64,000 bases of DNA from a virus (Duplodnaviria > Caudoviricetes). The notes beneath the pieces were generated by a model. The model had not been told where the DNA came from and did not search any database. It worked only from the letters and a program-made list of their open reading frames with translations. The stretch lies in the IMG/VR virus record IMGVR_UViG_3300028833_000112, positions 1-64,000 of that record; one strand, given 5' to 3'. The translations under genes and the position numbers were made by a program. This document shows positions 4,356 through 30,479 of the stretch, in pieces (position 1 is the stretch's first letter; each line of letters starts with the position of its first letter).

Positions 4356-5096
4356 TTGGCATTACCACTTGCAGGCTTGGCGCGCGCGGCTAAGTTGGGC
4401 ATAATTGATGCTCAAGGAAAAGTCACGCGCTCCGAAATTTATTTAACTAACGTCGAGACCGAGGAGGAGGTACATCTTTCGATGACGCCCGAAAAAGTTC
4501 AGGTCAAGACGGAGGCTTCATTCAGAAATTATCAAATCGTGGAAGTCGGCGAAGTGCGAATCCCGAAAGGCGAACACCTCACGCAAATTTCTTGGAACGG
4601 GATTTTGCCCGGCGCGGGCATGTTGCTTTATCCCTTCCTCAGTCACGCCGCTTGGGAAGACCCGCAGGAGTTAATCAAAGTTTTCAAACGCTGGCGGGAG
4701 GAAGGTGCGAAGTTGCGGTTGCTCGTCACGCAGACGCCGATTAATTTGGAAGTTTATATCCGCGCGTTCGATTATGAGGCGAGCGGCGGCATGGGCGATT
4801 ATCGTTACTCGATTGACTTAATCGCGGCGAAGGAACTGCAGGTGCTCACCGTGGAGGAAGCGGACGCTCAACGCGAACAACAGGCGCAAAATTCGCAGGA
4901 TGAATTGAATCGCCGAGCTGCCATGAAGTCTGACGCCGGAGTTTGGATTGAAAAAATCGATGACATCTACGCCGCAGTAAAAATTTTGACTGGCAACGGT
5001 TCACTCGCCGACGTGGAGAGAGTTCTGGACGCAAGCGGCATTTCTTCCCCCGATGATTTTATGACAGGCAGCCCACAACTTTTGATTTGGGGATAA
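4356..5096 (+). CDS. XkdP-like tail tube initiator
   Basis: Follows tape measure gene; MTPEKVQV...GEVRIPKG...ISWNG...GDYRYSIDL pattern. Confidence 0.75.
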   Translation: MALPLAGLARAAKLGIIDAQGKVTRSEIYLTNVETEEEVHLSMTPEKVQVKTEASFRNYQIVEVGEVRIPKGEHLTQISWNGILPGAGMLLYPFLSHAAWEDPQELIKVFKRWREEGAKLRLLVTQTPINLEVYIRAFDYEASGGMGDYRYSIDLIAAKELQVLTVEEADAQREQQAQNSQDELNRRAAMKSDAGVWIEKIDDIYAAVKILTGNGSLADVERVLDASGISSPDDFMTGSPQLLIWG

Positions 5097-5164
5097 AAAA
5101 ATCGGCTGATAAAATTTCAACCGCCGTAAGGCTTATTTTTTTACGCGAAGGAAGGTGATAAGAA

Positions 5165-6241
5165 ATGATTGACCTCAGCAAGGTTGAATATCGCGTCGTG
5201 GTCGTGGCGAGTGACGGCACTCAATATGACGTGACGCCGATAACCAGTTCGCTTGGGTGGCAAGAGGGCGAGAAAGAACTTGCGGCGAAGATTAATTGCA
5301 AGTTCGCGTGCGTGATGGTCGACGGCTCTCTTATCACCGACACCGTGAAGATGATGACGCCGATTATAATTTACGCAAGCGACGGCTCCGGCTTTCAAGA
5401 AATGATTCGCGGGAACGTGACGAAACTCGGCTTGACCGAATCGAACGGCGAATTCACTTTGAATATCGAAGCCGCCGACGAAGCTCAAGCCCTCCGCCAC
5501 TCGCAGGACGATTATTATTTTTCTCCCGACGCCGGGACAAGTTCAATCATTGAAAAAATTTTGACTGACCATGGGATTCCTTACACGATTCAAATCAGTA
5601 GCGACGTTAAGCACGAGAAAAAAGTCTATCGCGCAAAATATTTGAGTGACATGCTCGGCGACGTGCTCAAGGATTTAAAAGAGAAGAACGGCGGCACATA
5701 TTTCATCCGCGCGAAGGAAGGCGTCATAGAAATTATTCCACGCGGCACGAACGAAACGATTTGGCATTTTGACATCGACAACAATTCCGTCCGCGTGCAA
5801 GATGAATTCGATTCGACGGACACGGTCACGCAAGTTAAAGTCGTCGGCAAGCAACGCACAGAGGGACATCAATCGGTGGACGCGGTCGTCGACGGGCGAA
5901 CGAATTTAGGGACGCGCACAGTCATTTATCACCGCGACGATAAAACTTCGCTGGAGGAGGCAGAGACCGCCGCGAAAAAAATTCTCTCCGAGAACGGAAC
6001 GATTAAGCGCAAGACAACGGTCGAAGCTCCCGATTTACCTTTCCTAAGGAAGGGCGACCGCATAAGACTTCGTTCATCTGTGGGCGAAGGTTTTTTCTTT
6101 ATCAAAAGCATTTTCCATGACGCTCCGCAACAGAGAATGCGCGCCGATTTGGATTATGATAAAGAGTACTCGAAAGACCAAGGGCTGGAGGATTATGAAC
6201 TCGCCGCCACGGACGAAAGCGGCAGTTCGAATCCGCCGTAA
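5165..6241 (+). CDS. XkdQ/YqbQ-like baseplate hub
   Basis: 358 aa; synteny; TQVKVVG...LRKGDRI motifs. Confidence 0.8.
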   Translation: MIDLSKVEYRVVVVASDGTQYDVTPITSSLGWQEGEKELAAKINCKFACVMVDGSLITDTVKMMTPIIIYASDGSGFQEMIRGNVTKLGLTESNGEFTLNIEAADEAQALRHSQDDYYFSPDAGTSSIIEKILTDHGIPYTIQISSDVKHEKKVYRAKYLSDMLGDVLKDLKEKNGGTYFIRAKEGVIEIIPRGTNETIWHFDIDNNSVRVQDEFDSTDTVTQVKVVGKQRTEGHQSVDAVVDGRTNLGTRTVIYHRDDKTSLEEAETAAKKILSENGTIKRKTTVEAPDLPFLRKGDRIRLRSSVGEGFFFIKSIFHDAPQQRMRADLDYDKEYSKDQGLEDYELAATDESGSSNPP

Positions 6242-6244
6242 GGA

Positions 6245-6679
6245 GTGATTAATGTGGACGGCAAAGCAGAATTCAATCCCGGCGCAAACTCGCTGACGAA
6301 CACGCTCACGCACATGATGAAGAGCGTCGCGGGCGAAATGGGCAAGCCGCAGCTCGCGTTCGGAATAATCAACGCCGATTACTCGCTCACGATTAACGGC
6401 TTCAAGTGCCCGATACCAAAGACTGATTACTCTGTGTGCCGTCAACTTTTATACAACCCTGCGGTGCCGCTGACTGAAACCTACGTCGACGGCGGCCACG
6501 ACCATGAAGGGGTTGTGCCTTACGAAAAACATCAACACGAAGTTAAACTGCCGAAGAAGATGAGACGTCTTAAGCCCGGCGACAAAATTTTGGTTGCGAT
6601 TCTCGGCAATGAGTTTTGCGTGATTGACATCGTGTTCGACGCAAAATGGTTGACGGGTTCCGAGCCGCCATGGACTTGA
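6245..6679 (+). CDS. Baseplate spike-like protein (XkdR position)
   Basis: His pairs (HDH, HQH) and LKPGDKILVA...FCVID motif; synteny. Confidence 0.7.
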   Translation: MINVDGKAEFNPGANSLTNTLTHMMKSVAGEMGKPQLAFGIINADYSLTINGFKCPIPKTDYSVCRQLLYNPAVPLTETYVDGGHDHEGVVPYEKHQHEVKLPKKMRRLKPGDKILVAILGNEFCVIDIVFDAKWLTGSEPPWT

Positions 6680-6692
6680 GGAGGTGAACTGA

Positions 6693-7136
6693 TTGCCAAG
6701 TCTCTATCCAACGATAAATCTTCCTAAGCTTGTGGCTCCAAAGCCGCGGGCAACGGTGCGCACAAATCGTGTTGCGCCGTTTTTTAATTGGCTGACGGGC
6801 GAATTTGAATTCAATCCCGACGGCTCGCCGCGTATGGCAACACCCAAAGAAACTTACGAAACTTGGTGCATAAAAGTTTGTTCGACGGAGCGCGGCAGTC
6901 GTCTCGCCTACTCAGATAAGATTGGCACGGAATTCAACGCGTTGGCCGGCGTCGACGATAACGAGCGAGTCAAGTCTTCAATCATTAGAACGATAACCGA
7001 ATCGCTCATGGTTCATCCGCAGACGGCGTGGGTGAAGAATTTTTCCTTCCGAAACGTGGCGGATAATTTGTGGGTGTCGTTCGACGTGCAAGGTAAAAAT
7101 TTCGACACGCCGAGTCGGCTGGAGGTGAGTGTGTGA
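6693..7136 (+). CDS. XkdS/DUF2634-like baseplate protein
   Basis: WCIK...TERG..LAYS..IGTE...ITESL..HP motif. Confidence 0.85.
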   Translation: MPSLYPTINLPKLVAPKPRATVRTNRVAPFFNWLTGEFEFNPDGSPRMATPKETYETWCIKVCSTERGSRLAYSDKIGTEFNALAGVDDNERVKSSIIRTITESLMVHPQTAWVKNFSFRNVADNLWVSFDVQGKNFDTPSRLEVSV

Positions 7137-8443
7137 GCATAATTAAGTTTGAACTGCCCGAAGAATTCATAGACGCAACTTACGAAAAAATTTTGGCGCG
7201 GATGTTGGCGCGCGTCCCTGACCGGTATGACAAGACCGAAGGCGGATTCGTTTACGATATGATTGCGCCGACGGCTTTGGAGGTCGCCGAACTTATTCAG
7301 TTTTGGCTGGCTCTCGGAATAAAAACCAATTTTCATATTTGGGCTTCGGGGCGTTGGCTTGATTATCACGCGCATGATTGCGGCTTGACTCGACACGCGG
7401 CGACTCACGCTTACACCGATTTGACCGTCGAAACGAACGGCGCGGCAAAATTTCCTGCGGGATTTATTTTCTCTGTGCCAAGCGATGACAATAACCCCGC
7501 GATTGATTTTGAGGTCGTCGAAACGCACAGCTTCACGGAGGCGGGCACGTACACGATTCAAGTGCGCGCGGTCGACGCCGGGACAATCGGCAACGTTGCG
7601 GCGGGTTCGATTGTTATCATGAAGAATCCGATTAAGCCTGTCACTTCGATTACAAATTTGGAGGCGTCAACGGGCGGCGTTGAGGCTGAAAGCGATGATT
7701 CTCTGCGGCAGAGGATTGATGATTTTTACGCGGGACACGGCGCGAGCTACGTCGGCAACAAAGGCGATTATGAACGTTGGGCGCGGGAAATTGACGGCGT
7801 CGGTTATGCTCACTGCATTCCGTGTGCGCCAATGTGGTCAAGCTTTTTCAAAGTGCGCGACGCGAGCGATAACCCTGTGCAAGGAACTTTGGAGCTTCGC
7901 GCGGGTGATTCGCCGAACGAAATTAAAATCGTCGACATAAGCAGCACGGACGAAAATCCGCACACACTCACAGGCGAACTTGCTTATGACGGCGTGAACT
8001 CGGTGCGGCTGGTTATCGCGGATGGCAACGGCGACCCCGCCAATAACGTTTTGCTCAAGCAGGTGGAGGAATATATTTTCGGCACGGGACACAATGATTC
8101 CAAACGCCTTGCGCCAATCGGCGTGGCAAAGTATGAGGTCGTCGCGCCCGCGCTCGCCATGCTCAGTCTTGAACTCGACGTGCAATACGCTACCGGCGCA
8201 ACCAAATCGAAAGTGCGCAGTCGAATCGTTAAGGTCATGATGAATTTTATTCAGTCACTCAGCGACGACGACAATTTCTACGGCGAAATTAAATATTCAA
8301 AAGTCTCCGCGCTTATGAGCAGTGTCGCGGGCATTGAAGACTTCCGCAATTTGAAATTGAACGGCGGCACGATTAACGTTACCTTCCTGCAAGACGAAGT
8401 ACCGTTTATCGACGAGGAGCACGTGACGATTAACGCTTGGTAA
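7133..8443 (+). CDS. Baseplate J-like protein (XkdT)
   Basis: DKTEGGFVYDMIAP, GGVEAESDDSLRQR, GNKGDYERWAREIDGVG motifs. Confidence 0.92.
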   Translation: MSIIKFELPEEFIDATYEKILARMLARVPDRYDKTEGGFVYDMIAPTALEVAELIQFWLALGIKTNFHIWASGRWLDYHAHDCGLTRHAATHAYTDLTVETNGAAKFPAGFIFSVPSDDNNPAIDFEVVETHSFTEAGTYTIQVRAVDAGTIGNVAAGSIVIMKNPIKPVTSITNLEASTGGVEAESDDSLRQRIDDFYAGHGASYVGNKGDYERWAREIDGVGYAHCIPCAPMWSSFFKVRDASDNPVQGTLELRAGDSPNEIKIVDISSTDENPHTLTGELAYDGVNSVRLVIADGNGDPANNVLLKQVEEYIFGTGHNDSKRLAPIGVAKYEVVAPALAMLSLELDVQYATGATKSKVRSRIVKVMMNFIQSLSDDDNFYGEIKYSKVSALMSSVAGIEDFRNLKLNGGTINVTFLQDEVPFIDEEHVTINAW

Positions 8444-8461: not shown

Positions 8462-9634
8462 ATGGTTGTTCTGACTGATTTCGCCGAACGCGCTTTGAAA
8501 AGAATCACGCCGATGTATGAGAACAGTGAATTCATTCAAGAATTTTTCAACGGCATTTCCTTCGACGACGTGCGCGCGTATTTCAAAACTCTCCGCGAGC
8601 AAAGTTTCATTCAGACGGTTGATTGGGGCATTGAGACGCAAGAACACAAATATTCTTTGGAGCCGCGACCCGATTTAACTTTGGAGCAAAGGCGCGCGCG
8701 CTTGGGTATCAAAGCTGCCGTCCACCGCCCGCTGAATCCGAAAATTTTGGAGCAGGCGATAAAAGATTATTACGGGCTGGAGACTTACCTTTTCGAGGGC
8801 GACCCCGGCTTTATTTGGCTCTGCGCCAATTACATGACCGAGGACGGCTTTAACGGCATTATTGAATTTTTGGAGACGGAAAAGCCCGCGCATTTGGGCT
8901 TGAAAGTTTTATTCAATTTTGAAGAGTATACAGGCGGCAAAGTTGACGACATGGAGCCGCGGATTTTTGCGGGCGTGGCGATTGATGATTACGGCGAAAC
9001 CAAAATTGATTTGCCGAAGCCTGACAATGCGCTCGTGAATTTGCGGGTATCGACGGGGCAATTTGTCGAAGGTCAGATAAAAATTTATCCCGCGCTGCCT
9101 GACGACGTTTTGCTTAAACCATACGCGGGCGTCGCGTTGAACGTCGAGGGAGAAATTACAATCGGCTGCCAAAAAGTTTACATACCTTACTCGCCAAATC
9201 TGCCCGTGATTTATCCGCCCGACTCTCCGATTGTCATCCCGCCCGAAAATCCGCTCGACCCGCTTCCCGAATACAAACCGCCTGCCGAACCCGAAGTTCA
9301 AGAATATTATTTCTTGGAGAATCCGATTGCACAGCTCGCCATCGCGGACAAGACGATTGCACGCGGCGCAGAAAATTTTATCACGCCGATTGATGAAATT
9401 GATTCGATTGAATATGACACCGTGAAATTATTTTTTAACTTCCCGATTTCAAAGCACAGGCGCGTGAGAGGTGTCGCCATGCAGAACGCGCGAAACGATT
9501 TGACCGAAAAAGAAATTCAAGCGGTCGGGCAATACGCCGTGGATAACAAATTAATCACGAACACTGCGGGCGAATTGGCTTCGAGTGTGACGAAAGCCGC
9601 GCTTAAAACCCGTGAGGTTACTCAAATTTTCTGA
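8462..9634 (+). CDS. XkdU/YmfQ-like baseplate wedge protein with Pro-rich linker and C-terminal DUF2922-like domain
   Basis: TVDWGI..E..Y.L...LEQRRAR...KPAHL N-domain, then short beta repeats, PPDSPIVIPPENP linker and extra ~75-aa domain. Confidence 0.8.
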   Translation: MVVLTDFAERALKRITPMYENSEFIQEFFNGISFDDVRAYFKTLREQSFIQTVDWGIETQEHKYSLEPRPDLTLEQRRARLGIKAAVHRPLNPKILEQAIKDYYGLETYLFEGDPGFIWLCANYMTEDGFNGIIEFLETEKPAHLGLKVLFNFEEYTGGKVDDMEPRIFAGVAIDDYGETKIDLPKPDNALVNLRVSTGQFVEGQIKIYPALPDDVLLKPYAGVALNVEGEITIGCQKVYIPYSPNLPVIYPPDSPIVIPPENPLDPLPEYKPPAEPEVQEYYFLENPIAQLAIADKTIARGAENFITPIDEIDSIEYDTVKLFFNFPISKHRRVRGVAMQNARNDLTEKEIQAVGQYAVDNKLITNTAGELASSVTKAALKTREVTQIF

Positions 9635-9645
9635 GGAGGACGAAC

Positions 9646-9801
9646 ATGAAAATTGAACTTAATGAAGAGCAACAGCAGATTGCCGAGAAAGTTTTTGAAC
9701 AGCTCGTCGGGCAAACAATTTATTCGGCGAAGGAAATTATAAAATTCGTGCTCGTCAGTCTGCACAAGCACGCCGTGATTCGAGGTGAATCCGATGAGTG
9801 A
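9646..9801 (+). CDS. Small hypothetical protein (51 aa)
   Basis: GAGGAGG RBS; MKIELNEEQQQIAEKVFEQL...; fills the gap in the operon; not in the ORF track. Confidence 0.6.
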   Translation: MKIELNEEQQQIAEKVFEQLVGQTIYSAKEIIKFVLVSLHKHAVIRGESDE

Positions 9802-11170
9802 CGTTTTAACTTTGGCTGAAGGTTTGGGCTTGAATGCGGCGCAACTTGCACAGCTCGAAGAAAATTTGGCGGCTCTCAAAGTCAATACTTTGCTGGCACT
9901 CGACAGCGACGTCGCCCGCGCCAAAGCGGGAGCCCGAATCACGAGCGCGGGCTTGGACATCATCGCGCAAGGCAACGCCGGGGCTCAAATCAAATATAAA
10001 TCTGTTTGGATTGGTGACGCCGTTAAGAACGGGGAAATTGTCACGCCGAGTGACGAAGAAATTTTGTCCATGACAAATTTGGTTCACCCGATTTTGAAAG
10101 CGAACATGGCGGGAGCCGTGCACACCGGCGGCGGAACTTTTACGATTAAATTTATCGTCGACAACTCAACTTATGAGCAGGGTTTTTGGCTGAGAGAAAT
10201 CGGGCTCTTCGCGACCGACCCTGCCACGGGTGTTGATAAACTTTACTGCTACAAAAATGACGGCAAGCTTGCGACGTACATTCCACCCAATGATGGAGCC
10301 GTTGCAAAAAAATTGGTTATCTCACTCGTGACCGTCGTCGACCAAGCAAGCAATGTCACCGCGATTATCGACGCGAAATATCTTTACGTCAATGCGGAGG
10401 AGTTCAACGCGCATGAAGTTTCCACGAATCCTCATCCCGAATTTTTACAAAAGCGCGGTGAGCTCACGGCCTCAAGTTTTTATTGGGCGGCGGGCGACGA
10501 CAATCACTTGCACCCGATAAGCAAATCGAATTTGCAACTTGATATTCTCGGTGACAGCGTTTATGAATTGCCGAATTTAAGCTCGCGAATCGGGCAGACC
10601 GAAATGAATCTTGCAAATCTCTACGCCCAACTCAAAGCCGAATCGGAGATTGGGCTTGCCGCAAATCTTTTACTCTTTGAAGACTTCACGGATTACAGTT
10701 GCATTGATACATTCACCGCGGATGTCCCGATTCAAGTGCGTGACGTTCAAAATTTGTACGTCTCATCATTCGCGGGCATTCAAGAGGGCAGCTGGTACAC
10801 GGTCAGCGACGGCTTGCACAGCCAAACGCTCCAAGTCAAAGCTTTGGCGAGCAACGGTGACAACAAAGCCGTTATCTTCACAGAAAATTTGCTGACCAAT
10901 TTTGATTTAAGTAAGACGAAACTTTATCGCACGACGTGCTCAATGTCCGCGGGGCAAATTACGAGTTCGGGCGGAGAAAAAACTCGCCGCTATGATTTTT
11001 CGACTGACGAATGGACAGGCGAGGCGGCAGGCGTTCCTCAAACTTTAACGACTGCCATAACCGAAACCAGTCAAAATTATTCCAAAGGCGCGGGCAAGAA
11101 CGGCAAATACGCTGACTTCACTTTGGACGGCGAATTTACTTTGACCATGTCGAGTTTGATGAGTGCGTAA
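9794..11170 (+). CDS. Tail-collar fibre protein
   Basis: ITSAGL...IGD...GFWLREIGLFATDP...LY..VTVV and HEVSTNPHP motifs typical of fibre N-terminal domains. Confidence 0.85.
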   Translation: MSDVLTLAEGLGLNAAQLAQLEENLAALKVNTLLALDSDVARAKAGARITSAGLDIIAQGNAGAQIKYKSVWIGDAVKNGEIVTPSDEEILSMTNLVHPILKANMAGAVHTGGGTFTIKFIVDNSTYEQGFWLREIGLFATDPATGVDKLYCYKNDGKLATYIPPNDGAVAKKLVISLVTVVDQASNVTAIIDAKYLYVNAEEFNAHEVSTNPHPEFLQKRGELTASSFYWAAGDDNHLHPISKSNLQLDILGDSVYELPNLSSRIGQTEMNLANLYAQLKAESEIGLAANLLLFEDFTDYSCIDTFTADVPIQVRDVQNLYVSSFAGIQEGSWYTVSDGLHSQTLQVKALASNGDNKAVIFTENLLTNFDLSKTKLYRTTCSMSAGQITSSGGEKTRRYDFSTDEWTGEAAGVPQTLTTAITETSQNYSKGAGKNGKYADFTLDGEFTLTMSSLMSA

Positions 11171-11186
11171 GGTAAGGAGTGAGAAC

Positions 11187-13436
11187 ATGGCATTTAATAT
11201 CGGGAAAGCAAATCCGTTTTCGGGCAACGGCGGTTACGGCTTGGGCGATTACGGCGGCTTGCACCCTCAGGGGAGCGGACGAATTATTAACAGCTATGCG
11301 CAAATAACGAACATTACCGCAAGCACGCCCGATAATTTTAATAAAGTCACAATCGGAGCCACGTACTTAACTACAAATGAAAAATGGCCTGCTCCTTTTG
11401 CCGCGAACACTGAAGTTTTGGTTCACGTCGCGGCCATTAATAAATCGGGCGTTGCTGAAGATGTTCGCCGCGGACGCTGGCAGGTGTGCAGAATAACCGA
11501 GCGAAGTTCGACCACTACAAGCAACGGCTTGGTGCTCACGCTCAATAAAAATCTCAAAAAAGTTTTTCTCGACAGCGGCAACGGATTCGAAGGTTTGTAC
11601 ATTCAGCTGGTGTCCATCCCAAATTTCAAGGACGTCATTCTCGACAGCGGTTGTTCAATTACTTGCCCTGTATTTTCTGCGGGCAACGGTTACGGCGGAG
11701 TCGTGGCGTTCAAAAGCTCAGGCACTTTGACATTTAACGGCGGGCATATCGACGTGGCGGAGAAAGGCATACAAAGTTCGGACGCGACAGCTTTGTGGAG
11801 CAACTCACGCGTGCCCACAGAGGACTGCACCAACGATATTGTTTACAGATACGTCGGCTGGGAAAATTATCGCGCGGTTTATCATCTGCCGCTTAATTAT
11901 CCCGGCGGTGTCGTCTTTGCTCTGGCGAAAAATATGGTGTGTCACGCCGACAGTCGAATCGGCAATCCGAGCCAAACGGGTGTCGCACGTGAACGCGGTG
12001 CCAATAATAATTTGGCGGGCGGCTCCTCTATCTTGCTCGCCGCGGAAAATATTTCGGGCTGGGCACCTGCCATGCTCGCCAAATATCCTACGTCCAAAAA
12101 CAGTAATTATCGCGGGCTCAATCGTTGTTACGTCGCGACTGAAACCACTTTGCCGACGGATGAAGGGCTTTACGCGCTCGATTGCATTTCGGATACCACG
12201 CGCATGGCGGAAACTTTTAACCTCAGTGATATTCAATTCGGCAGCGGCAAAGACGGCGACCGAACGAATTACACTGACCAGCTCAACAGTTACGCGGCGG
12301 TGACAAATGTAAAAAGCAATAACCAATTTGATATTGACGTGAACAATATAAAAAACGGTGGGCTCGCAACGCTTGAAGTCGGGGCTCTTGTGCTTATTCA
12401 TGCGTCGCCGAAGTCAACTTGGTACAAAGAGACGGGGCGGTGCATGTTCTCCAAAATCACGAACTACGCGAACGGTGTCATTACCATTGAGGACGAATTT
12501 TTAGGCATTGACGGCGCGTCACTCGAAACAAAACATTATTACATTCAAATAATCGCCGTGCCGCAGTTCAATAATTTTACTCTGGCAACAGTAACTTATC
12601 CGGCACCTGCGTTCAGTAATGGTTGCGGGGGCATTGCGGCTATCGCGGTCAGCGGCAACTGCAATTTATCGGGCGGCAAAATCCTTGTTGAGAAGTGCGG
12701 CATTTCAGCGAAAGCTTACGGCTCCAGCGGATTAAACTACGTCGGCAATGCGCAAATGTCTAAACGCCTCCCGCTCGGTCAAGGGCATGGTTCCGTGCTC
12801 ATTCTCGCAAAAAATTTAACAATGAACACGGACACTCGAATCGGCTCAAGTTTTACGGGCAACAATCTTAACGGGTTGAATTTCCGTCAGAGTAATATGG
12901 ACGGCACTGAGGTAACTGCAGGGCAACCGTGGTCGGCAGGAACAATTTTTGATGAGTATATAACGAGCCGCAGTAAAAGCTACTTCGGCTTCGGCGAGGC
13001 AGGCGGCGGCGACCGCGGCGGCAAAATCTATGGTTACACCACAGGCGCAGGAGGTTACGGCTCCAATTCCGCTGCTTCGACCGCCAAAACTGACGTCGGT
13101 TATCAAGGCGCGCACGTCCTCATCATTGCCGACAAAATCACGGGCTTTTGCATTGACGCAATTTCGACAGGCGGTTCAGGCGGCAATACTTATACTTATA
13201 AGTTGGCTACATCTGTTGGCAATCAAGGCTCGGCAGGCTGCGGCGGTGCAAGTTACGGTGGAGCAGGCGCAAGTTATCTAAGTTTCCGAGGCGGCAACGG
13301 CGGTTTCATCGGCGGCGGCGCGGGCTGCGGCACCGATATGGATTACAGTGCAGGCGGAGGCGCGGGCGGCTTCGCGTTCGTCTACTGCAATGAAATTTCC
13401 AAACAAAATACAAACGGCATTTCTCTTGAGCGATAA
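11187..13436 (+). CDS. Gly-rich tail fibre/receptor-binding protein with internal duplication
   Basis: Two homologous halves (NSYA...IQ.V.(I/V)P.F...GG.....SG.....GG.I...AKN......RIG) and Gly-rich C-terminus. Confidence 0.7.
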   Translation: MAFNIGKANPFSGNGGYGLGDYGGLHPQGSGRIINSYAQITNITASTPDNFNKVTIGATYLTTNEKWPAPFAANTEVLVHVAAINKSGVAEDVRRGRWQVCRITERSSTTTSNGLVLTLNKNLKKVFLDSGNGFEGLYIQLVSIPNFKDVILDSGCSITCPVFSAGNGYGGVVAFKSSGTLTFNGGHIDVAEKGIQSSDATALWSNSRVPTEDCTNDIVYRYVGWENYRAVYHLPLNYPGGVVFALAKNMVCHADSRIGNPSQTGVARERGANNNLAGGSSILLAAENISGWAPAMLAKYPTSKNSNYRGLNRCYVATETTLPTDEGLYALDCISDTTRMAETFNLSDIQFGSGKDGDRTNYTDQLNSYAAVTNVKSNNQFDIDVNNIKNGGLATLEVGALVLIHASPKSTWYKETGRCMFSKITNYANGVITIEDEFLGIDGASLETKHYYIQIIAVPQFNNFTLATVTYPAPAFSNGCGGIAAIAVSGNCNLSGGKILVEKCGISAKAYGSSGLNYVGNAQMSKRLPLGQGHGSVLILAKNLTMNTDTRIGSSFTGNNLNGLNFRQSNMDGTEVTAGQPWSAGTIFDEYITSRSKSYFGFGEAGGGDRGGKIYGYTTGAGGYGSNSAASTAKTDVGYQGAHVLIIADKITGFCIDAISTGGSGGNTYTYKLATSVGNQGSAGCGGASYGGAGASYLSFRGGNGGFIGGGAGCGTDMDYSAGGGAGGFAFVYCNEISKQNTNGISLER

Positions 13437-13438
13437 TC

Positions 13439-13469
13439 GGAGGGGCGGGCGACCGTCCCTTTTAATTTT
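13439..13469 (+). terminator. Intrinsic terminator-like hairpin
   Basis: AGGGGCGG-GCGA-CCGTCCCT followed by TTTAATTTT. Confidence 0.7.
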
Positions 13470-13495
13470 CCTTTTCATAAGAGGAGGCACGGGGG
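13467..13495. repeat. 29-bp inverted repeat, left arm
   Basis: TTTCCTTTTCATAAGAGGAGGCACGGGGG; exact reverse complement of 14784-14812. Confidence 0.97.
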
Positions 13496-13518
13496 CTCTT
13501 CCGAAAGGAGATTACATT

Positions 13519-13737
13519 ATGGCTTACGTTTTTAACATCAAGCAGTGCGCCACGCTCAAAGGTAAGTCCGCTTACGGCGAATCGCTTACTCTTCCCGGCG
13601 TGACCACCGCGAACATCACGCCTCAGCAAGCCGCCGAGCAAGCCAACAAAATTCTTGCCATTGGCGGCAAAACTATCCTCGCGGACAGAACCATGACCCG
13701 CGTGCAGACGGAGGAGGTCATTGGCGATGGCGAATAA
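13519..13737 (+). CDS. Small cassette protein 1 (72 aa; weak DUF1659/DUF2922-like pattern)
   Basis: AAAGGAG RBS; ESLTLPGVTTANITPQQAAEQANKIL...MTRVQTEEV. Confidence 0.7.
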   Translation: MAYVFNIKQCATLKGKSAYGESLTLPGVTTANITPQQAAEQANKILAIGGKTILADRTMTRVQTEEVIGDGE

Positions 13738-14011
13738 TTCTATCAAACTCACGCTCGGCTACGAGGGCACGGACTTCACGCGCAACCTCACTATCGGCGG
13801 CGTGGCTGATTCTGTCGTCAGCGGCGTGAAAGCTAACATCAAAGCCCTGAATGCGTCCATTGTGGGCGGCACCGACGGCGGGCTTTCTACTTTCTTCCGC
13901 GCCGACGATTACGACGAGACCGAGGGCATTGGTACCTTTTCGGGTATCACCGCCGCGACAATCGTCACGACCGAAACCACGCACATTAATCTGGACGAGG
14001 AGGGTGAATAA
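13727..14011 (+). CDS. Small cassette protein 2 (DUF2922-like)
   Basis: GGAGGAGG RBS; IKLTLGYEGTDFTRNLTI...ITAATIVTTETTHI. Confidence 0.7.
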   Translation: MANNSIKLTLGYEGTDFTRNLTIGGVADSVVSGVKANIKALNASIVGGTDGGLSTFFRADDYDETEGIGTFSGITAATIVTTETTHINLDEEGE

Positions 14012-14517
14012 TGGCTACGAAAACTTCACTCGTCATCAACGCGGTCAATGATGGCAAACAAATTCAAAAGACTTTGACCGACATCAACCCCACGGCGGAC
14101 AACGGCGCGCTCAAAGTTTGGGGGCAAATGCTCAACGGGCTCACGACCAACACTTACGTCAAAACCGACCGCATTGACAAAACCAACTGCGACACCTACG
14201 AAACGAAACTCACACCGAACGTCGCGCTCGACCCCGCCGCCGCTGCGCTCACTCGCTCCGCTTGCCTTGTAGGTGCCAGCCCGCTAATCAACATTACCAC
14301 CGACGGCGAACTTTCCATTGTCAACAACGACAATACGACTTGGTGCACGACATTGCGCCTCGGTGCAGATACCGGCAGATATCGTCTCTATATCGGCGTT
14401 ATCAATGAGGCTACAGTAGCCAATGCCACGGCTCCTCATGATATCGTGATTCGTACCACTGAAACCGATAACTACTACGCGGGCGAATTCATTATCACGA
14501 TTAACCCCGATTCCTAA
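14011..14517 (+). CDS. Cassette protein 3: DUF1659-like domain plus C-terminal beta-rich domain
   Basis: TSLVI...DGKQIQKTLTDINPTADNGALKVWGQMLNGLTTNTYVKTDRIDKT resembles the DUF1659 pattern. Confidence 0.7.
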   Translation: MATKTSLVINAVNDGKQIQKTLTDINPTADNGALKVWGQMLNGLTTNTYVKTDRIDKTNCDTYETKLTPNVALDPAAAALTRSACLVGASPLINITTDGELSIVNNDNTTWCTTLRLGADTGRYRLYIGVINEATVANATAPHDIVIRTTETDNYYAGEFIITINPDS

Positions 14518-14530
14518 GGAGGTATGAATC

Positions 14531-14776
14531 ATGGCTGACGTTATCAAAACTCGCGGCGTGCTCCAGTTGGTTGCCGAGTTCACGGACGGCGACGACCGCA
14601 CAATTACTTTGGACAACCCCAAGACTTCACTCACCGCGTCCGCAATTAATTCCGCTTCCGCTTACGCCAAGGCTAACAACCTGATTGTCGGCGATAAGGC
14701 TTCGGCGGGGTTCACGCGTTTCAAGTCGGCAAAGAAGGTTGCGACCACCACTCGTTACCTTGACTTGACCGACTAA
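14531..14776 (+). CDS. Cassette protein 4 (DUF2922-like)
   Basis: LQLVAEFTDGDDRTITLDNPKTSLTASAI...KSAKKVATT resembles the DUF2922 pattern; AAGGAGG RBS. Confidence 0.75.
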   Translation: MADVIKTRGVLQLVAEFTDGDDRTITLDNPKTSLTASAINSASAYAKANNLIVGDKASAGFTRFKSAKKVATTTRYLDLTD

Positions 14777-14783
14777 ACTTTTT

Positions 14784-14812
14784 CCCCCGTGCCTCCTCTT
14801 ATGAAAAGGAAA
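14784..14812. repeat. 29-bp inverted repeat, right arm
   Basis: CCCCCGTGCCTCCTCTTATGAAAAGGAAA. Confidence 0.97.
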
Positions 14813-14823
14813 GGAATGATTTT

Positions 14824-16800
14824 ATGGCTAAAATGCTCGCTTCTCATTCAATGCGTTTCGGCACAGATAATTTCGGCTGGAAAACGGATGCCTCTACAGG
14901 AGCTATTGGAAATTCAACTATCACGGGCGGCGGCTCGAAAAGCACAATTACATCCGATAACGGCACAACTACCATTGCCGACAGCTCGACGTTTACCTTG
15001 AGCACGGGCGGCGGCGGCAGCATTACCGTGACGGATAACGGCAGTGGAACCGTGACAATATCGGGCGGCGGTTCTGAAACGATTGAGGCTTCGGGCGGCA
15101 ACACCGATTATCAATCCATTCAAGACTCTGCCGGGAAAAATATTTTAGTCCAAGGCGCGGGCGGCAGAAATGTTGCCATTTATGTTGTTTTGCCCACAGT
15201 CGACGATGATGGCGACATGATTGACGAAACCGACGGCACGACCAGCTCAAACGGCTCGGCAGTGACCGCGACTTTTTTGAAAACTGCTTTGCTTAAAGGG
15301 ACACATGTCTGGCTCTGCAAAAATAAATCCGCTGTTTTGGGCTTTGACATCAAAGGGCAAAATTATAATTACAACAGCGATGAAATTAAATGCCGATTTG
15401 TTTTCAGGCACAGCGGTGACAGCAGCAAATATTATACTCTTCGCGCTGAGCAAAACCCCGACACAGGGAAAATTGAAGGTAAGCTTTGTGAGTTCAATTA
15501 TCCGATGGGCAATGACACCGACCGCCTCAAAAGTATTTTGGAGCACGGCAATCACGTCGGCGATATTTATACCATTGAAAGTATCCCCGAATTCGTCGGA
15601 TATAATATCTCACCGTTTTACGCGTTGCAGGCTCCATCTAATTCGGTCGTCGTTCCGTCCATTCGACTCGATTTAAAAACCGAAGTGGCGACCAACAACA
15701 ACGTCAAAGTTGTCGAGACCGAAATTTATCCGCTGGCTGTGAGCGGTACTGCGCCCATTGTCACTGACGTCATTATAGATGATGTCAGCGAAAACAATGC
15801 CTCCGTTACCGTGCTCGCACAAACTTTTGATTTGGAAGGTAACGGCTCAGGTTGGAAGTCCATTGACAGTATCATTAACTCTGAAGCTTATTCAATTCAA
15901 TTCCAAATTACCTACAACGTGACTGCCATTAACGGCGACAACATTGCCAAGCTCAATTCGATTTGCGTCAAACACACTTACGGCGAAATTCTTGTCAAGG
16001 GCATGACGTCTGACCTGTACACCGTCGCCAATGATTATGAAGTCCCGTTGCAAATGTGTTATGTGGTTGTTCGCCACGACCGCATTAATGAAGATTCGGA
16101 GATTGAAGCTTACGTGAACTTTATGCGCCCGACTAAACGCAGAGAAATGCTAAATGTGGGTTCGGGCACGGGCGAGCCGCAAGAAATTATCCTTGGCAAA
16201 AACAAAGTTGCCGACCCGAATATTGTCGCTTCCTCCTTGCGGCTTTACGCGACGCGCGCCAGAACCGACGACCCGATTCTTTTGCGCGACGACCAATATT
16301 CTTTCAGCAGCGACACCGGCGTCGTTACCACTACCATATCAAAGAACGTGCCCATTTATGCCAGCTATGATTACGACCATGACGCAGAAGATTGGTTGCC
16401 GATGACTAAAGAAACCACTCAGCCGCTCAATGACGCGGACGGGCGTTATTCCACTCGATTCACTTATGCTTTGCCTGACGCTCAAGCTCAAGGCAAAACC
16501 AAATCGAGTGTGCTCATCCGCTTGAAGCGCAAAACGGGCACCGTCACGAAAAAAACTTTGGGCACGGGCAACACTCACCGTCAAGTTTTCTTGCTCGACC
16601 ACGTCCCCGATGTCAGCACGATTAAATTCGTCAACGAGCTCACCGACAATGAAGATTCTTCAAATCGCTGGAGCTATGACGAAAATTTGAAGACTCTCTC
16701 TGTGTGGGCGGACAAGGGCAAAACCATTATCGTCAGCTACAGCTGGCAGGGCGAAGAATTTAATATTTATTCGGTCGCGTGCGGCTGGAGTATTGCTTAA
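14824..16800 (+). CDS. Tail/structural beta-rich protein
   Basis: 658 aa in the fibre block; Gly/Thr-rich N-terminus; repeated G.G.G..Q...L...SYD.....L..... modules. Confidence 0.65.
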   Translation: MAKMLASHSMRFGTDNFGWKTDASTGAIGNSTITGGGSKSTITSDNGTTTIADSSTFTLSTGGGGSITVTDNGSGTVTISGGGSETIEASGGNTDYQSIQDSAGKNILVQGAGGRNVAIYVVLPTVDDDGDMIDETDGTTSSNGSAVTATFLKTALLKGTHVWLCKNKSAVLGFDIKGQNYNYNSDEIKCRFVFRHSGDSSKYYTLRAEQNPDTGKIEGKLCEFNYPMGNDTDRLKSILEHGNHVGDIYTIESIPEFVGYNISPFYALQAPSNSVVVPSIRLDLKTEVATNNNVKVVETEIYPLAVSGTAPIVTDVIIDDVSENNASVTVLAQTFDLEGNGSGWKSIDSIINSEAYSIQFQITYNVTAINGDNIAKLNSICVKHTYGEILVKGMTSDLYTVANDYEVPLQMCYVVVRHDRINEDSEIEAYVNFMRPTKRREMLNVGSGTGEPQEIILGKNKVADPNIVASSLRLYATRARTDDPILLRDDQYSFSSDTGVVTTTISKNVPIYASYDYDHDAEDWLPMTKETTQPLNDADGRYSTRFTYALPDAQAQGKTKSSVLIRLKRKTGTVTKKTLGTGNTHRQVFLLDHVPDVSTIKFVNELTDNEDSSNRWSYDENLKTLSVWADKGKTIIVSYSWQGEEFNIYSVACGWSIA

Positions 16801-16966: not shown

Positions 16967-19900
16967 AGCATTATTATCCTTACGCGCCGAACGCGCCGAC
17001 ACCGATTTACGGCGAAGAGCACGTCATTGAGAACGGGCAAATCCTCCTGAATCATATTCCGTTGGCTGACTCGATTGAAATTGAAGGATTCAGGCAAACC
17101 AATTCGGCCGTTCTCGTCGCGAATCAATTTTATTGCGCTTACGGCTCCGAATATTATTATCGCGAGGCAAATTGCATTGTTCGATTCAACGAGCTGCATA
17201 ACGGCGAAACTGTCCGCGTCAAATATCAGCAGGTCGGCACGATTATCACCGCCAATGACATGAACGAAATTAAAGCGCATTTGGAGAGCAGCGACCTGCA
17301 TTCAAGTTTTGTTTTGCCTGCCGCTTCCGCTGAAACGCGCGGCGGAATTCGTGTCGGGCGCGGGCTGAATGTCAGCGACGACGTTCTTTCTGTCGACGAA
17401 GAAATTTCTGCCATTACTCCTGCCACGCGCGACTCACTTGGCGGAATCATGGTCGGCAGTCGTTTGTCAATTACGGATGAGGGTGTACTTTCCGCGGACA
17501 CAATACCCACGGCAACCAACATTCGGCTCGGCGGCGTGGTCGTCGAATCGGACGCAAATATTGCTCGAACGATTGAAAGATATTTTCCCGCGAGCGGGGA
17601 AACTTTGCCCGTTCACACTCAGGCAATCGCCACGCGTAATTCTCTCGGCGTTGTAAAAATCGGCGACGGTCTTTCAATCACCGAAGAAGGTTTACTCACG
17701 GCTGACGCTCAAGATTTTACACTTACCCCGGCGTCGGCTGATTCGCTCGGCGGAGTAAAAATTGGCAGCGGCTTGTCAATCGACGCGAACGGAGTTTTGT
17801 CCGCTGACGCTCAAGATTTTACGTTGACTGCAGCCACGGCTGATTCATTGGGCGGTGTCAAAGTTGGTTCACGTCTCTCGATTGACTCGAACGGAGTTTT
17901 GTCCGCGGACGCGTTGCAAAGCGCAAGCACTTCGCGGCTTGGTGGAGTTGTCGTCGAATCCGACGCGAACATTGCCCGAACGATTGAGCGTTATTTCCCG
18001 TCGGTCACGGCTGATTCAGAAATTTTGCCCGTGCTCTCCTCAATCCCTGCTGCAACTCGTGAATCAATCGGCGGAGTGATTATCGGCAACGGGCTTTCGA
18101 TTACTGAGGACGGATTACTTTCAGCTGACGCTCAAAATTTTACGTTGACTGCGGCCACGGCCGAATCTCTAGGCGGGATTAAGGTCGGCAACTCACTGAC
18201 AATCACGAACGGCGTTTTGAATTATAATCTGCCGAACGCGAGCACCGTAACCAAGGGCGGCGTTGTTTACGCGGCGGACAATGATATCGCAAACACAATC
18301 GAAAGATATTTCCCGTCGGTTACGGCTGACACAGAAATTATCCCGGCGTTGACTTCGATTCCCGTTGCCACGGCTGAATCACTCGGCGGAGTAAAAATCG
18401 GCAACGGCTTATCGATTACCGAGGACGGATTACTTTCGGCGGACGCTCAAAATTTTACGCTCACTCCTGCCACGCGTGATTCGTTGGGCGGTGTGAAAAT
18501 CGGCGCGCGCCTCTCGATTGATTCACTCGGCGTCCTTTCGGCGGACACGGTTCAAACTTACACATTGACTGCCGCAACCTCTGATTCATTGGGCGGCGTC
18601 TTCGTTGAGTCTGACGAAAATATTTCGCGCACGATTCAAAAATATTTCCCGACGGTCAGCGCGGATGAAATTATTCCTGTGCTCACGTCGATTCCTGTTG
18701 CCACAAACGAATCTCTCGGCGGAGTTATCATCGGCGACGGCTTGACGATTTCGGAGAACGGAATTTTATCAGCCGAAGCTCAAACGTTCACGCTCACGCC
18801 CGCAACTCATGACTCGCTTGGCGGGATAAAAGTTGGCGACGGCTTGTCAATTACGGGCGGCGGTGTCCTCACGGCTCTTGCGCAAGATTTTACATTGACC
18901 GCAGCGACCACAAGTTCTCTCGGCGGAGTGAAGATTGAATCGGATGAGAACGTCGCCACCATGATTGAAAATTATTTCCCAAGTGATTGGGAATTTGTCC
19001 CGGCGTTGACGTCGATTCCGCCCGCAACACATGAATCACTCGGCGGGGTTATCGTCGGCGACGGCTTATCAATCACGGACGGCGGTTTGCTTACGGTTGA
19101 TTCGGTTGCGCCTTACACTTTGCCCGCCGCGTCCGCTGACTCTTTGGGCGGAGTAAAAATCGGTACGAGCTTGACTTTCGTCAACAGCGTGCTCGATTAC
19201 AATTTGCCTGTCGCCTCTTCGACCACACGTGGCGGAATTAAAATCGGACGCGGGCTCACGATGACGGGCGAAATTCTTTCAGCCGATGCGCAAGACTTCA
19301 CGTTGACTGCGGCGACCACTGATTCACTCGGAGGAGTGAAGATTGCCGGCGACGCAGAAATTGCCGCCATGATTGAAGAATATTTCCCGACGGTCAGCGG
19401 CGAAACGATTGCTCCGCTGTATTCGATTCCTGCCGCAACTTATGATTCGCTTGGAGGGATTATTCCCGGTGTCACCATGTCCATCAAAGACGGCGTGCTC
19501 GATTACTATCTGCCCACGGCAAGTTCAACTCAGCTCGGTGGCGTGAAAATCGGGCGCGGGCTCACGATAACGGACGGATTACTTTCAGCCGACGCACAAG
19601 ATTTTACGCTCAAGCCCGCGACCACAAGTCAACTCGGCGGAGTAAAAATCGGCGCGCGGCTTTCAATCACCGCAGACGGAATTTTATCCGCCGATTCGGT
19701 TGCGCCCTACACACTGCCCGCCGCCAGCGACGAAGAAATTTCTTCCATGATTGAAGAACATTTTCCCGAATCGCTGACGCCTGAGCCGTTTACATTGCCC
19801 GCCGCCACGAGGACTTCACTCGGCGGGATTATCGTCGGCGACCGCTTGACGATTTCAAATTCGGGCGTCCTCTCCGCGAATGTGCAGTCTTACACCTTGC

Positions 19901-20788: not shown

Positions 20789-20846
20789 AATGAATTAGCA
20801 CAAAACATTGCCGAGGCTGACACCGATTTTATAGGAGGTGGCGAGT

Positions 20847-21116
20847 ATGGAAGGGGAATTTCTACTCAAATTATTGATGAATGTCGGTGCGCCTGTCGGC
20901 ATTTGTTTTTACACACTTTACGGCGTAAACAACACCTTGAAAGAACAGGATAAAACTTTCAAGGAGCTCACTAAAGTCATGGATATTTTTACCAAAGAAA
21001 TTGAGCGGCGCGATTATGAGCACGCGACCAAGCTTGAGCGGCTCGAAGAAAAAGTGCGCGACCTTACTTTCAAAGTTGATGCTCACTGCCATTCGAACAA
21101 TTCAAGCAAAGATTAA
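20847..21116 (+). CDS. YvrJ-like membrane protein, probable holin
   Basis: LLMNVGAPVGICFYTL hydrophobic segment (YvrJ NVG.P pattern) followed by coiled coil. Confidence 0.6.
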   Translation: MEGEFLLKLLMNVGAPVGICFYTLYGVNNTLKEQDKTFKELTKVMDIFTKEIERRDYEHATKLERLEEKVRDLTFKVDAHCHSNNSSKD

Positions 21117-25473: not shown

Positions 25474-25485
25474 GGAGGCGATTTT

Positions 25486-26959: not shown

Positions 26960-27529
26960 ATGAAAGGGATTGACGTTTCAGTTTTCAACGAGAATGTCGA
27001 CTGGCAAGCTCTGAAGGACGCGGGCATTGACTTCGCCATCTGCAGGACGGGCTTCGGCAAGAGCGGGCTCGACGAAAACTTCCAACACAACGTCGAGGAG
27101 GCTCACAAGGCGGGACTCATTTGCGGGGCGTATCACTATTCCTACGCGTTGACGCCCTCTGACGCCATTACCGAAGCTCTTTTCTGCAAGCGCATTATCG
27201 CCGAAGCCGGGGTTTTGCTCGAACTGCCCGTGTTCTTCGATATGGAGGACGCAGACGGTTACAAATCTCGCCACGGATTTTCTTTCACTCGACGCAATGT
27301 GACTAACATCTGCCGCGCGTTCATCGATTCAATTAAGCCGCTCGACTGTGGAGTTTATGCCTCTTGCTCGTGGCTGGAAGATTGGATTGACTGGCAATCG
27401 CTTGGTTGCCCCGTGTGGAATGCAGCATGGAGCGGGCATGATGACATCAAAGGATTCTGTTGGCAGTTCACGGACGAAATGCTTATCGGCGGCAAAAAGT
27501 TCGACGGAAATATTTTGTACGGGAGATAA
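26960..27529 (+). CDS. Endolysin, glycoside hydrolase family 25 (catalytic domain only)
   Basis: MKGIDVS...GAYHYS...PVFFDME...GVYA...W.A.W...WQFT. Confidence 0.92.
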   Translation: MKGIDVSVFNENVDWQALKDAGIDFAICRTGFGKSGLDENFQHNVEEAHKAGLICGAYHYSYALTPSDAITEALFCKRIIAEAGVLLELPVFFDMEDADGYKSRHGFSFTRRNVTNICRAFIDSIKPLDCGVYASCSWLEDWIDWQSLGCPVWNAAWSGHDDIKGFCWQFTDEMLIGGKKFDGNILYGR

Positions 27530-30474: not shown

Positions 30475-30479
30475 AAGAT

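Follow-up and report, generated by a model that had tools for sequence, protein, structure and literature searches.

SroA and SroB of the staphylococci, a DUF1659 and a DUF2922 protein, are reportedly encoded by a strictly co-occurring pair of adjacent genes, which in Staphylococcus aureus is induced by SigS and was reported to modulate mRNA stability (bioRxiv 10.1101/2022.10.19.512975). These genes are chromosomal and controlled by a sigma factor, lie outside any phage context and encode no additional domains. We found the same two Pfam families, in adjacent small genes and in the same order (DUF1659 followed by DUF2922), in a stretch of 64,000 nucleotides from a virus of the Caudoviricetes (positions 1–64,000 of IMG/VR record IMGVR_UViG_3300028833_000112; hereafter the window). 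Unlike the staphylococcal pair, the phage cassette has four genes, c1–c4, and one family is also found on a baseplate protein and the other on an Ig-like domain (Table 1). The window, which encodes a GH25 lysozyme (26960–27529), appears to belong to a lineage of temperate, contractile-tailed phages that infect Selenomonadaceae of the rumen. We tentatively read DUF2922 and DUF1659 as a heterodimerising plug-and-socket pair that would dock c3 on the baseplate wedge for auxiliary host-surface binding; two widespread domains of unknown function would then probably be a docking pair rather than parts of a filament.

Table 1. Features of the window discussed in the text
Feature	Coordinates	Strand	Basis
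Baseplate wedge protein, 390 aa	8462–9634	+	Pfam; 57 homologues, many full-length with PF10076 and PF11148
Gp48/XkdU-type N-domain, wedge aa 12–145	8495–8896	+	PF10076 Phage_Mu_Gp48; phrog_521
Pro-rich linker, about aa 240–283 of wedge	9179–9310	+	Read from translation
Tethered DUF2922 domain of wedge ('socket')	9416–9631	+	PF11148; hhalign against c4; predicted binding of c3 N-domain
Terminator-like hairpin just past the Gly-rich fibre-like gene (757 aa)	13439–13462	+	Pattern scan and fold
5' arm of 29-nt perfect inverted repeat	13467–13495	.	Equivalent arm pairs, of other sequence, at 18 other loci
c1, 72 aa, predicted beta-beta-alpha-beta fold	13519–13737	+	Homologues and model
c2, 94 aa, divergent DUF2922-like with insertion	13727–14011	+	Pfam matches of family; hhalign against c4
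c3, 168 aa, DUF1659 N-domain ('plug', aa 1–62) and variable Ig-like C-domain	14011–14517	+	Pfam and model
c4, 81 aa, free DUF2922 protein	14531–14776	+	PF11148, 32 bits
3' arm, overlapping ribosome-binding region of next gene (ATG 14824)	14784–14812	.	Complementary to 5' arm
YvrJ-like small membrane/coiled-coil protein	20838–21116	+	PF12841, sub-threshold

The wedge gene adjoins an upstream Baseplate_J gene (7133–8443), the order seen in Mu, P2 and PBSX, and its product shares the PF10076 N-domain of Mu Gp48, P2 gpI and PBSX XkdU (42.7 bits against a Pfam cut-off of 37.4; phrog_521 tail protein, E 8e-19). The Pfam models of those proteins span 139–150 positions, whereas the 390-aa phage wedge continues through a beta-repeat middle and a Pro-rich tether, which differs in length between homologues, into the extra C-terminal domain that a preliminary description had read from the translation. 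We found this domain to be DUF2922 (PF11148, aa 338–390), above the Pfam cut-off at 27.4 bits against 25.5, and at 30.7 bits when searched in six frames. It had also been aligned by eye with c4, and profile–profile comparison returned the same register (hhalign, 93.9% probability, E 1.6e-7); pairwise BLAST gave no match between the two. The fusion is present in dozens of metagenomic homologues, and the C-terminal part of the wedge is shared by no cultured phage in our collection. Column majority across the wedge homologues reaches 68% in the C-domain and 67.5% in the N-domain, against 47.5% in the middle and 38% in the linker, the least conserved part. Because the C-domain is conserved as much as the N-domain that integrates into the baseplate, and because the same domain is also borne by a wedge of another family (PF09684; P0055, 22% identical to the window wedge in the N-domain and 51% in the C-domain), the fusion appears to have been selected. 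The wedges of two loci (L048 and L050) bear a tandem pair of DUF2922 domains.

The gene order of the cassette, always with c1 first and c4 last, recurs unchanged at over 20 Selenomonadaceae prophage loci, and in at least nine Selenomonadaceae genomes, as well as in L005 and L010, a wedge fused to DUF2922 lies 3.5–6.6 kb upstream on the same strand. The cassette had been described as alternating DUF1659/DUF2922 pairs, which holds for c2, c3 and c4 and therefore not for all four genes, as c1 matches no profile. The c2 protein has no Pfam match itself; its family (98 representative relatives) includes 12 of 66 members that match DUF2922 (PF11148), and it aligns with c4 across the full length (hhalign, E 7.7e-4). 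DUF1659 is borderline at aa 3–58 of c3, with 22.6 bits in one search and 24.4 bits, above the cut-off, in another, and many c3 homologues carry PF07872. The 61 homologues found for c1 are about 71 aa long and match no Pfam family; profile comparisons gave no similarity to anything, and c1 (model pLDDT 88) resembles the c3 N-domain solely in its predicted beta-beta-alpha-beta order. The C-domain of c3 (model pLDDT 89) is an Ig/cadherin-like sandwich by fold matching (Z 6–7), in keeping with the extra beta domain noted earlier, but the suggested kinship with the SPNLTV repeats at 25474–26931 found no counterpart in sequence similarity.

Modelling wedge residues 305–390 together with c3 residues 1–64 gave an ipSAE of 0.66, against 0.01 for the best of three controls; 58 of 80 solved complexes attained the ipSAE mark, as did 2 of 110 mismatched pairs, counts that apply here only approximately, our own alignments having been used. 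The three runs had 100% of contacts in common, with a partner pLDDT of at least 85. The predicted interface is a pseudo-symmetric, dimer-like, helix-on-helix contact that includes the invariant N26 and T45 of c3 and the conserved R344, E351, I352, Y358, L364 and N367 of the wedge, and the model has no sign of strand complementation. The model supports binding of the wedge DUF2922 domain to the DUF1659 domain of c3, the case being one structure-prediction job of a kind that close cousins of the true partner also pass; the actual partner of c3 may therefore be c4, and that of the wedge c1 or some other protein. Shared families, joint conservation in several relatives and the passed controls suggest that the tethered domain and the proteins of the cassette are parts of one system, as had been proposed.

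The preliminary description went further, with the modules polymerising, DUF1659-like and DUF2922-like in alternation, into a filament or appendage nucleated by the tethered wedge domain. One phage does hold five paralogous modules, three of which stand alone as single-domain proteins; the predicted 15-residue first strand of c1 could pair with another sheet, and the best fold match of c1, a weak one at a Z of only 3.9, is the oligomer-forming phi29 p6. In metatranscriptome contigs of depth 2–6 from one study, cassette RNA also seems to exceed in abundance that of the fibre genes on either side, as for a high-copy component. However, the only modelled interface joins the two partners through a helix–helix contact of their most conserved surfaces instead of strand complementation, and such a closed interface would not propagate. 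On the wedges compared, module arrays did not exceed two, the only many-stretch match (P0171) having been examined by Pfam alone. Given the dimer-like interface and the lack of any sign of polymerisation, we read the pair as a docking system over a filament, which seems quite unlikely.

Natural fusions of the modules point the same way. DUF1659 is joined to the Ig-like domain in c3, LamG to a c2-like module in P0100, and a DUF1659-like module to LamG in a 485-aa protein of L045; modules are thus joined either to a baseplate anchor or to binding-type domains, which suits the docking of display domains and not a filament. The N- and C-domains of c3 are 98% and 62% identical to those of one homologue (P0059) and 55% and 85% identical to those of another (P0065), a mosaic pattern which shows, at the level of sequence, that the two domains recombine independently. 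Among loci c3 ranges from 138 to 219 aa, with two copies at one locus, and in a strain about 94% identical elsewhere the C-domain has been replaced at 14213–14299 and 14405–14518. By these comparisons c3 behaves as a receptor-binding accessory with a putative adhesive role.

Several loci suggest a different reading, in which the cassette is an autonomous non-virion unit (a moron, lysis-associated or regulatory) akin to SroA/SroB and expressed alone, the wedge domain being a secondary acquisition with another role. Several relatives keep the cassette with no tethered DUF2922 detected, among them L046, whose wedge has only 210 aa, and L043, whose wedge has 577 aa and ends in a different C-terminus. 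In L042 the repeat-bracketed cassette lies outside any tail module, beside Bro-N, DnaC-like and host genes, which implies a role independent of the wedge socket. Four-gene versions that are compact and lack the Ig domain sit in non-phage contexts, next to genes whose products have double-glycine leader peptides. All these loci count against docking, as do the S. aureus homologues reported as regulators, for which an effect on sigS mRNA stability was described (bioRxiv 10.1101/2022.10.19.512975). Autonomy would also fit the terminator-like hairpin ahead of the cassette (similar hairpins occur at only about 6 of 19 related loci), the weak resemblance of the c3 N-domain to the T4 antitoxin Dmd (Z 5.2, rmsd 2.4 Å, 51 aligned residues) and the RNA contigs, which span only 13501–14784 with the fibre genes silent, as in a lysogen-expressed gene set. 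The cassette also has XhlA-like or YvrJ-like membrane proteins in its vicinity; the YvrJ-like gene of the preliminary description is present 6 kb away, but its PF12841 match scores 18 bits against a cut-off of 29.5. On the other hand, a pattern scan found no promoter-like site upstream of c1, the wedge fusion is strongly conserved, and in at least ten loci the cassette lies inside the row of fibre genes, co-oriented and tightly packed. Ig-like and LamG fusions, moreover, make little sense for a cytoplasmic regulator lacking a signal peptide. We consider an autonomous unit unlikely.

Tail-fibre assembly proteins are encoded directly after fibre genes, and in the window the cassette directly follows a tail-collar-type fibre gene (9785–11170; phrog_7037) and the Gly-rich 757-aa gene, with more fibre-like genes behind it. 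Its small proteins, free of enzymatic motifs, could accordingly serve the fibre proteins encoded alongside as assembly factors or chaperones, in transient contact with the wedge socket during fibre mounting, and free c4 could hold c3 until hand-over. We hold this to be very unlikely, as the hypervariable surface-type domain of c3 would be superfluous for a chaperone and the cassette is also found away from fibre genes.

Inverted repeats, mostly of 25–36 nt, bracket the cassette at 19 loci (the window and 18 others). Their arm sequences are unrelated between loci while complementarity is preserved, and their positions are constant, between the stop of the upstream gene and the c1 ribosome-binding site on one side and between the c4 stop and the next gene on the other. 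The arm duplex amounts to −39 to −73 kcal/mol in 18 of the 19 loci and to −21 for the 19-nt pair of L015. Like the invertible segments of Mu (G) and P1 (C), the cassette is a unit of roughly 1.3 kb in a tail gene region between inverted repeats of about 30 nt, so the repeats could be the recombination sites of an inverton-like on/off switch of the cassette. In the window the arms form a perfect 29-nt repeat, a suitable size for such sites, arm position and complementarity are kept at 19 loci, and a tyrosine recombinase is encoded at 29284–30498. The cassette nevertheless lacks the invertase, the opposite-strand gene set and the flipped copies of Mu G and P1 C: the record (87% complete) has no serine invertase, the opposite strand has no genes, and three DNA runs, in contigs that drop rare variants, gave no strand-changing joint. 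Cassette and tail genes are co-oriented in all ten loci where tail genes are visible, the arms have no clear common core for one recombinase family, and G-U outnumbers A-C among sense-strand arm mismatches (15 to 7). Inversion thus appears highly improbable. Because complementarity is kept, mismatches favour G-U, orientation never varies and the RNA contigs of one study cover only the cassette, the arms most likely pair with each other in the late mRNA as a long-range stem, by which the cassette transcript would be processed or stabilised separately. RNase III processing stems flank rRNAs; here, in contrast, the bracketed unit is a four-gene mRNA segment.

In the docking arrangement that we tentatively favour, the peripheral wedge of the Mu Gp48/P2 gpI type would hold its DUF2922 socket on a flexible Pro-rich tether, and c3, a DUF1659 plug with a fast-evolving Ig-like domain, would dock on it, surrounding the baseplate with auxiliary modules for binding the host surface. 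The free modules c1, c2 and c4 would act as placeholders, chaperones or adaptors, pairing with one another and with c3. While the binding of wedge and plug is predicted from the complex model, we infer that c3 is the DUF1659-like protein on the wedge, that it is located in the virion and that its role is adhesive. In cohesin–dockerin, the CBA120-type branched tailspike adaptors and, in lactococcal phages, the accessory baseplate protein BppA, interaction modules on a scaffold recruit interchangeable binding domains, and the mode of working proposed here would be similar; there is, however, no homology, the phage fold is a beta-beta-alpha-beta unit of ~60 aa and its binding is predicted. T4 Hoc displays Ig-like domains on the phage virion, and c3 is comparable in that its C-domain is an Ig/cadherin-like sandwich that varies between strains, in a protein with no enzymatic motif, but this domain would attach via a separate docking domain and not within a capsid or tail protein.

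The window covers the first 64 kb of an IMG/VR record of 94 kb that is estimated to be 87% complete, and its gene row (table) identifies the region as the baseplate and fibre module of a contractile tail. Sheep-gut MAGs assigned to Selenomonadales/Selenomonadaceae contain one fragment at 93% identity along with several relatives, and the sequencing runs in which the stretch was found are gut metagenomes, from sheep or otherwise. Each of the runs X5-X11 (seven gut metagenomes from four studies) holds about 0.37 of the sampled words of 12800-15500, so one sub-stretch of this interval is near-identical across many samples. The YvrJ-like gene that the preliminary description placed at 20847 (gene 20838-21116) keeps a weak likeness to YvrJ (PF12841; 18 bits, E 0.0021) and lies under the 29.5-bit cut-off of that family.

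Genes of the baseplate and fibre region and of the stretch downstream, in window positions
Feature	Position	Strand	Remark
Tape measure	404-4342	+	
YqbQ-like protein	5165-6241	+	
Baseplate_J	7133-8443	+	E 5e-40
Wedge protein	8462-9634	+	directly after Baseplate_J
Tail-collar-type fibre	9785-11170	+	
Gly-rich 757-aa protein	11163-13436	+	
Four small genes, c1 to c4 (cassette)	13519-13737, 13727-14011, 14011-14517, 14531-14776	+	after the Gly-rich 757-aa gene
658-aa protein, 1070-aa repeat fibre, further fibre-like genes	downstream of c1-c4	+	
GH25 lysozyme	26960-27529	+	
Radical-SAM/4Fe-4S (Fer4_12) gene	28535-29056		between lysis region and integrase
Integrase-type tyrosine recombinase	29284-30498		14.5 kb from cassette

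The wedge protein consists of a Mu Gp48-type N-domain, a Pro-rich stretch of variable length and a C-terminal DUF2922 domain. The N-domain (aa 12-145) matches PF10076, of the Mu Gp48/P2 gpI type, with 42.7 bits against a cut-off of 37.4, and this score together with the position after Baseplate_J places the protein in the Mu Gp48/P2 gpI group (PF10076/PF09684). We found that the protein does run through its Pro-rich linker into an extra domain, as had been read from the sequence, and that this domain matches DUF2922 (PF11148) with 27.4 bits, and with 30.7 bits in a six-frame search, above the Pfam cut-off of 25.5. Its likeness to c4, drawn by eye, was recovered in the same register by profile-profile alignment (93.9% probability, E 1.6e-7); pairwise BLAST detected no similarity between the two. 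Most of the 57 wedge homologues align from end to end, many have both PF10076 and PF11148 in their annotation, and in a 25-homologue alignment the C-domain is conserved to the level of the N-domain, far above the middle and the linker. A DUF2922 domain is also carried by a P2-I-type wedge with a very different N-domain (the metagenomic homologue P0055), and two tandem C-terminal DUF2922-like domains are found in the wedges of two related loci, L048 (3029-4162, minus strand) and L050 (8220-9638, minus strand). A further locus, L049, has a single tethered domain and an additional free c4-like gene (6087-6344). Within the cultured-phage collection, only the N-domain of the wedge was matched, at about 26% identity. 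The observation itself, DUF2922 both tethered to the wedge and free in the cassette, is real and recurrent.

The cassette had been described as alternating DUF1659/DUF2922-like pairs, and three of its four proteins bear this out to differing degrees. The c4 protein matches PF11148 above the cut-off (32.0 bits; 31.2 bits in the six-frame search). The window's own c2 has no PF11148 match, 12 of its 66 family members do (best E 1.6e-4), and hhalign relates c2 to c4 with E 7.7e-4 and 25% probability; judged by sequence, c2 appears to be a divergent DUF2922 protein. The N-domain of c3 is a borderline but reproducible DUF1659 match (PF07872; 22.6 bits by hmmscan and 24.4 in the six-frame search, cut-off 24.1), with the orthologue in L009 scoring 30.4 bits and PF07872 found in 13 of 36 c3 homologues (35 plus the window's own protein). 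For c1 no profile similarity supports a place in the scheme: none of 43 members has a Pfam match, hhalign gave E 0.44 against c3 and detected nothing against c2, c3, c4 or the wedge C-domain, and a protein-atlas search returned noise (score 0.80). The c1 model (pLDDT 88) has the strand-strand-helix-strand order of the c3 N-domain, and its likeness to c3 is limited to this predicted secondary-structure order. Pairwise BLAST among the modules and sequence searches of the PDB gave no matches, and none of c2, c3 and c4 has a family in PHROGs. One 83-aa metagenomic protein, P0179, joins the N-terminal half of c2 at the helix to the C-terminal half of c1, as a natural or an assembly chimera, and hints at c1/c2 homology or recombination. 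Both P0179 and P0173, a Baseplate_J protein with a c2 piece, look like chimeras and were set aside as evidence.

In the predicted model the C-terminal domain of c3 is a beta sandwich (pLDDT 89), with cadherin, S-layer and adhesin Ig-like domains as its best structural matches (Z 6-7). The resemblance to the SPNLTV repeats of the adhesin, proposed earlier for this domain, did not appear in sequence comparison. Foldseek returned only Fab-type two-domain matches for the c3 model (TM about 0.29). Among solved structures the DUF1659-type fold has no convincing relative; the best BFVD match (E 0.06), that of the c3 N-domain to T4 Dmd (Z 5.2) and that of c1 to phi29 p6 (Z 3.9) all fall in the range seen for common small arrangements.

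The order c1-c2-c3-c4 is kept in the window and in the related loci L005, L007 and L010, and also at about 20 loci from 23 of 262 Selenomonadaceae species genomes; a search of IMG/VR gave only two related loci. The adjacent c3 and c4 genes, DUF1659 then DUF2922, are 14 nt apart, and this order is the same in all related cassettes. By length c3 varies from 138 to 219 aa among relatives, with one duplication, and its N- and C-domains have differing evolutionary histories. A strain in run X4 (5036-bp contig, about 94% identical elsewhere) has 14213-14299 and 14405-14518 of the Ig-like C-domain replaced by unrelated sequence of similar length. The L021 cassette holds tandem c3 paralogues of 191 and 195 aa (1765-2925), and its bracket is longer to match, with 1924 nt between the repeat arms. 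In L007 a 62-aa DUF1659-like ORF (18047-18235), scoring 20 bits against a profile of the c3 N-domain, overlaps the beginning of the adhesin-like gene that follows the cassette.

Complex prediction was run for a single pairing, wedge aa 305-390 with c3 aa 1-64. The model reached an ipSAE of 0.66 (0.65, 0.68 and 0.66 in the separate runs), against 0.01 for the best of three controls; of 80 solved complexes 58 reach the ipSAE mark, as do 2 of 110 mismatched pairs, a rough calibration since our own alignments were used. Contacts were 100% shared between runs, and the pLDDT of the partner was at least 85. In the predicted contact helix faces helix, the segment after each helix touches the loop at the end of the partner's strand 2, and the most conserved residues of both domains are taken in. 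The model supports binding of the wedge C-domain to the c3 N-domain. Complex prediction can also accept a close relative of the real partner, so in vivo the partner of c3 may be c4, and that of the wedge a different module.

This predicted interface bears directly on the idea, raised in the preliminary description, that the small proteins self-assemble into a filament. A strand-complemented filament would need a contact between subunits that can propagate, by donor strand or through two distinct faces; in the one pair modelled the interface is helix to helix and looks like a closed dimer contact. The filament is not supported as stated, and we have not adopted it, since the predicted contact, in a model of a single pair, is dimer-like. 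Our best reading, held tentatively and at a little under an even chance, is that the tethered DUF2922 and the DUF1659 domain of c3 form a plug-and-socket docking pair that would display the variable Ig-like domain on the baseplate. Natural fusions fit such docking: P0100 (479 aa) is a LamG (concanavalin-like lectin) protein with a C-terminal c2-like module, L045 encodes a LamG protein with an internal DUF1659-like module (4751-6205, minus strand), and c3 itself joins DUF1659 to an Ig-like domain.

The cassette is bracketed by a perfect 29-nt inverted repeat (arms 13467-13495 and 14784-14812) that encloses exactly the stretch from the c1 ribosome-binding site to the c4 stop codon. Arm pairs of 19-36 nt (25-36 nt except in L015) recur in these two positions at 19 loci, 18 besides the window; the loci listed are the window, L005, L007, L010 and L015-L031. 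The arm sequences are largely unrelated between loci while their complementarity is preserved, with a duplex energy of -39 to -73 kcal/mol in 18 of the 19 (L015, -21 kcal/mol). A transposon or MITE as the source of the repeats is out, as arm sequences vary by locus and the position is constant.

Invertible segments such as Mu G, P1 C and invertons are likewise bracketed by inverted repeats, but they come with a dedicated invertase and occur in both orientations, neither of which was found for the window's cassette. No serine invertase (PF00239) is present in the 94-kb record (87% complete), whose sole recombinase is the integrase-type tyrosine recombinase; no strand-changing joints were seen at the repeats in the contigs of three DNA runs; and cassette and tail genes run in the same direction in 10 of 10 loci where the latter are visible. 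Read on the sense strand, arm mismatches lean to G-U (15 against 7 A-C). Contigs from one sheep-gut metatranscriptome cover 13501-13691 and 13960-14784 and none lies in the flanking fibre genes, no sigma-70-like promoter was found upstream of c1, and a terminator-like hairpin stands 5' of the 5' arm in the window but in only about one third of the loci. Given the missing invertase and flipped junction, constant orientation, G-U bias, cassette-only RNA contigs and preserved complementarity, we favour over a DNA switch a long-range RNA stem that would process or stabilise the cassette transcript, the RNA data being contigs of low depth from one study.

Several observations speak against a purely structural role. 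The one paper on the DUF1659/DUF2922 pair reports that it is regulatory in S. aureus, as SroA/SroB (bioRxiv 10.1101/2022.10.19.512975). Among related loci, the cassette is present beside a short wedge in L046 and beside a wedge with a different C-terminus in L043. The repeat-bracketed cassette of L042 (2302-4320, minus strand), followed by an XhlA-like coiled-coil/TM protein, is at a prophage end and adjoins Bro-N/ORF6N and DnaC-like genes and the host genes phoH, ybeY and coaE, and so lies outside any tail module. Compact four-gene versions (L033, 1275-2160; L039, 1015-1900; L040, 1009-1897), encoding proteins of 77, 84, 61-65 and 80 aa, have neither the Ig-like domain nor the bracketing repeats; they sit in Selenomonadaceae chromosomes near several small double-glycine (...VAGG) leader-peptide genes, a RelE/HigB-like (toxin-like) gene and a replication-type HTH gene.

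Small proteins of the DUF1659 and DUF2922 families are widespread and, to our knowledge, have no accepted function. With one module on a baseplate wedge, its partner on Ig-like or lectin-like domains and a confidently predicted heterodimer, whether the pair binds becomes a direct question; binding would explain their strict co-occurrence, provide a new modular principle for attaching the host-recognition parts of phages, and open a way into the host range of phages of rumen Selenomonadaceae. A separate lead, on how the RNA of phage late operons is processed, comes from the covarying long-range repeat that flanks the four-gene mRNA segment. On a wider and, we think, unlikely reading, DUF1659/DUF2922 would be a general portable heterodimerisation pair, dockerin/cohesin in miniature, with which phages attach exchangeable Ig-like or lectin-like binding domains to the baseplate and which cells use in holin/hydrolase cassettes; the module genes would be cut from the late transcript by the covarying 30-bp stem, the cassette forming a 1.3-kb loop, as an mRNA counterpart of rRNA processing stems, and so have their own expression level. 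The SroA/SroB-type pair is reported to be controlled by an ECF-type sigma factor and to affect mRNA stability. Near the window's cassette no sigma factor gene was found; the adjacency of DUF1659 followed by DUF2922 is shared by c3 and c4.
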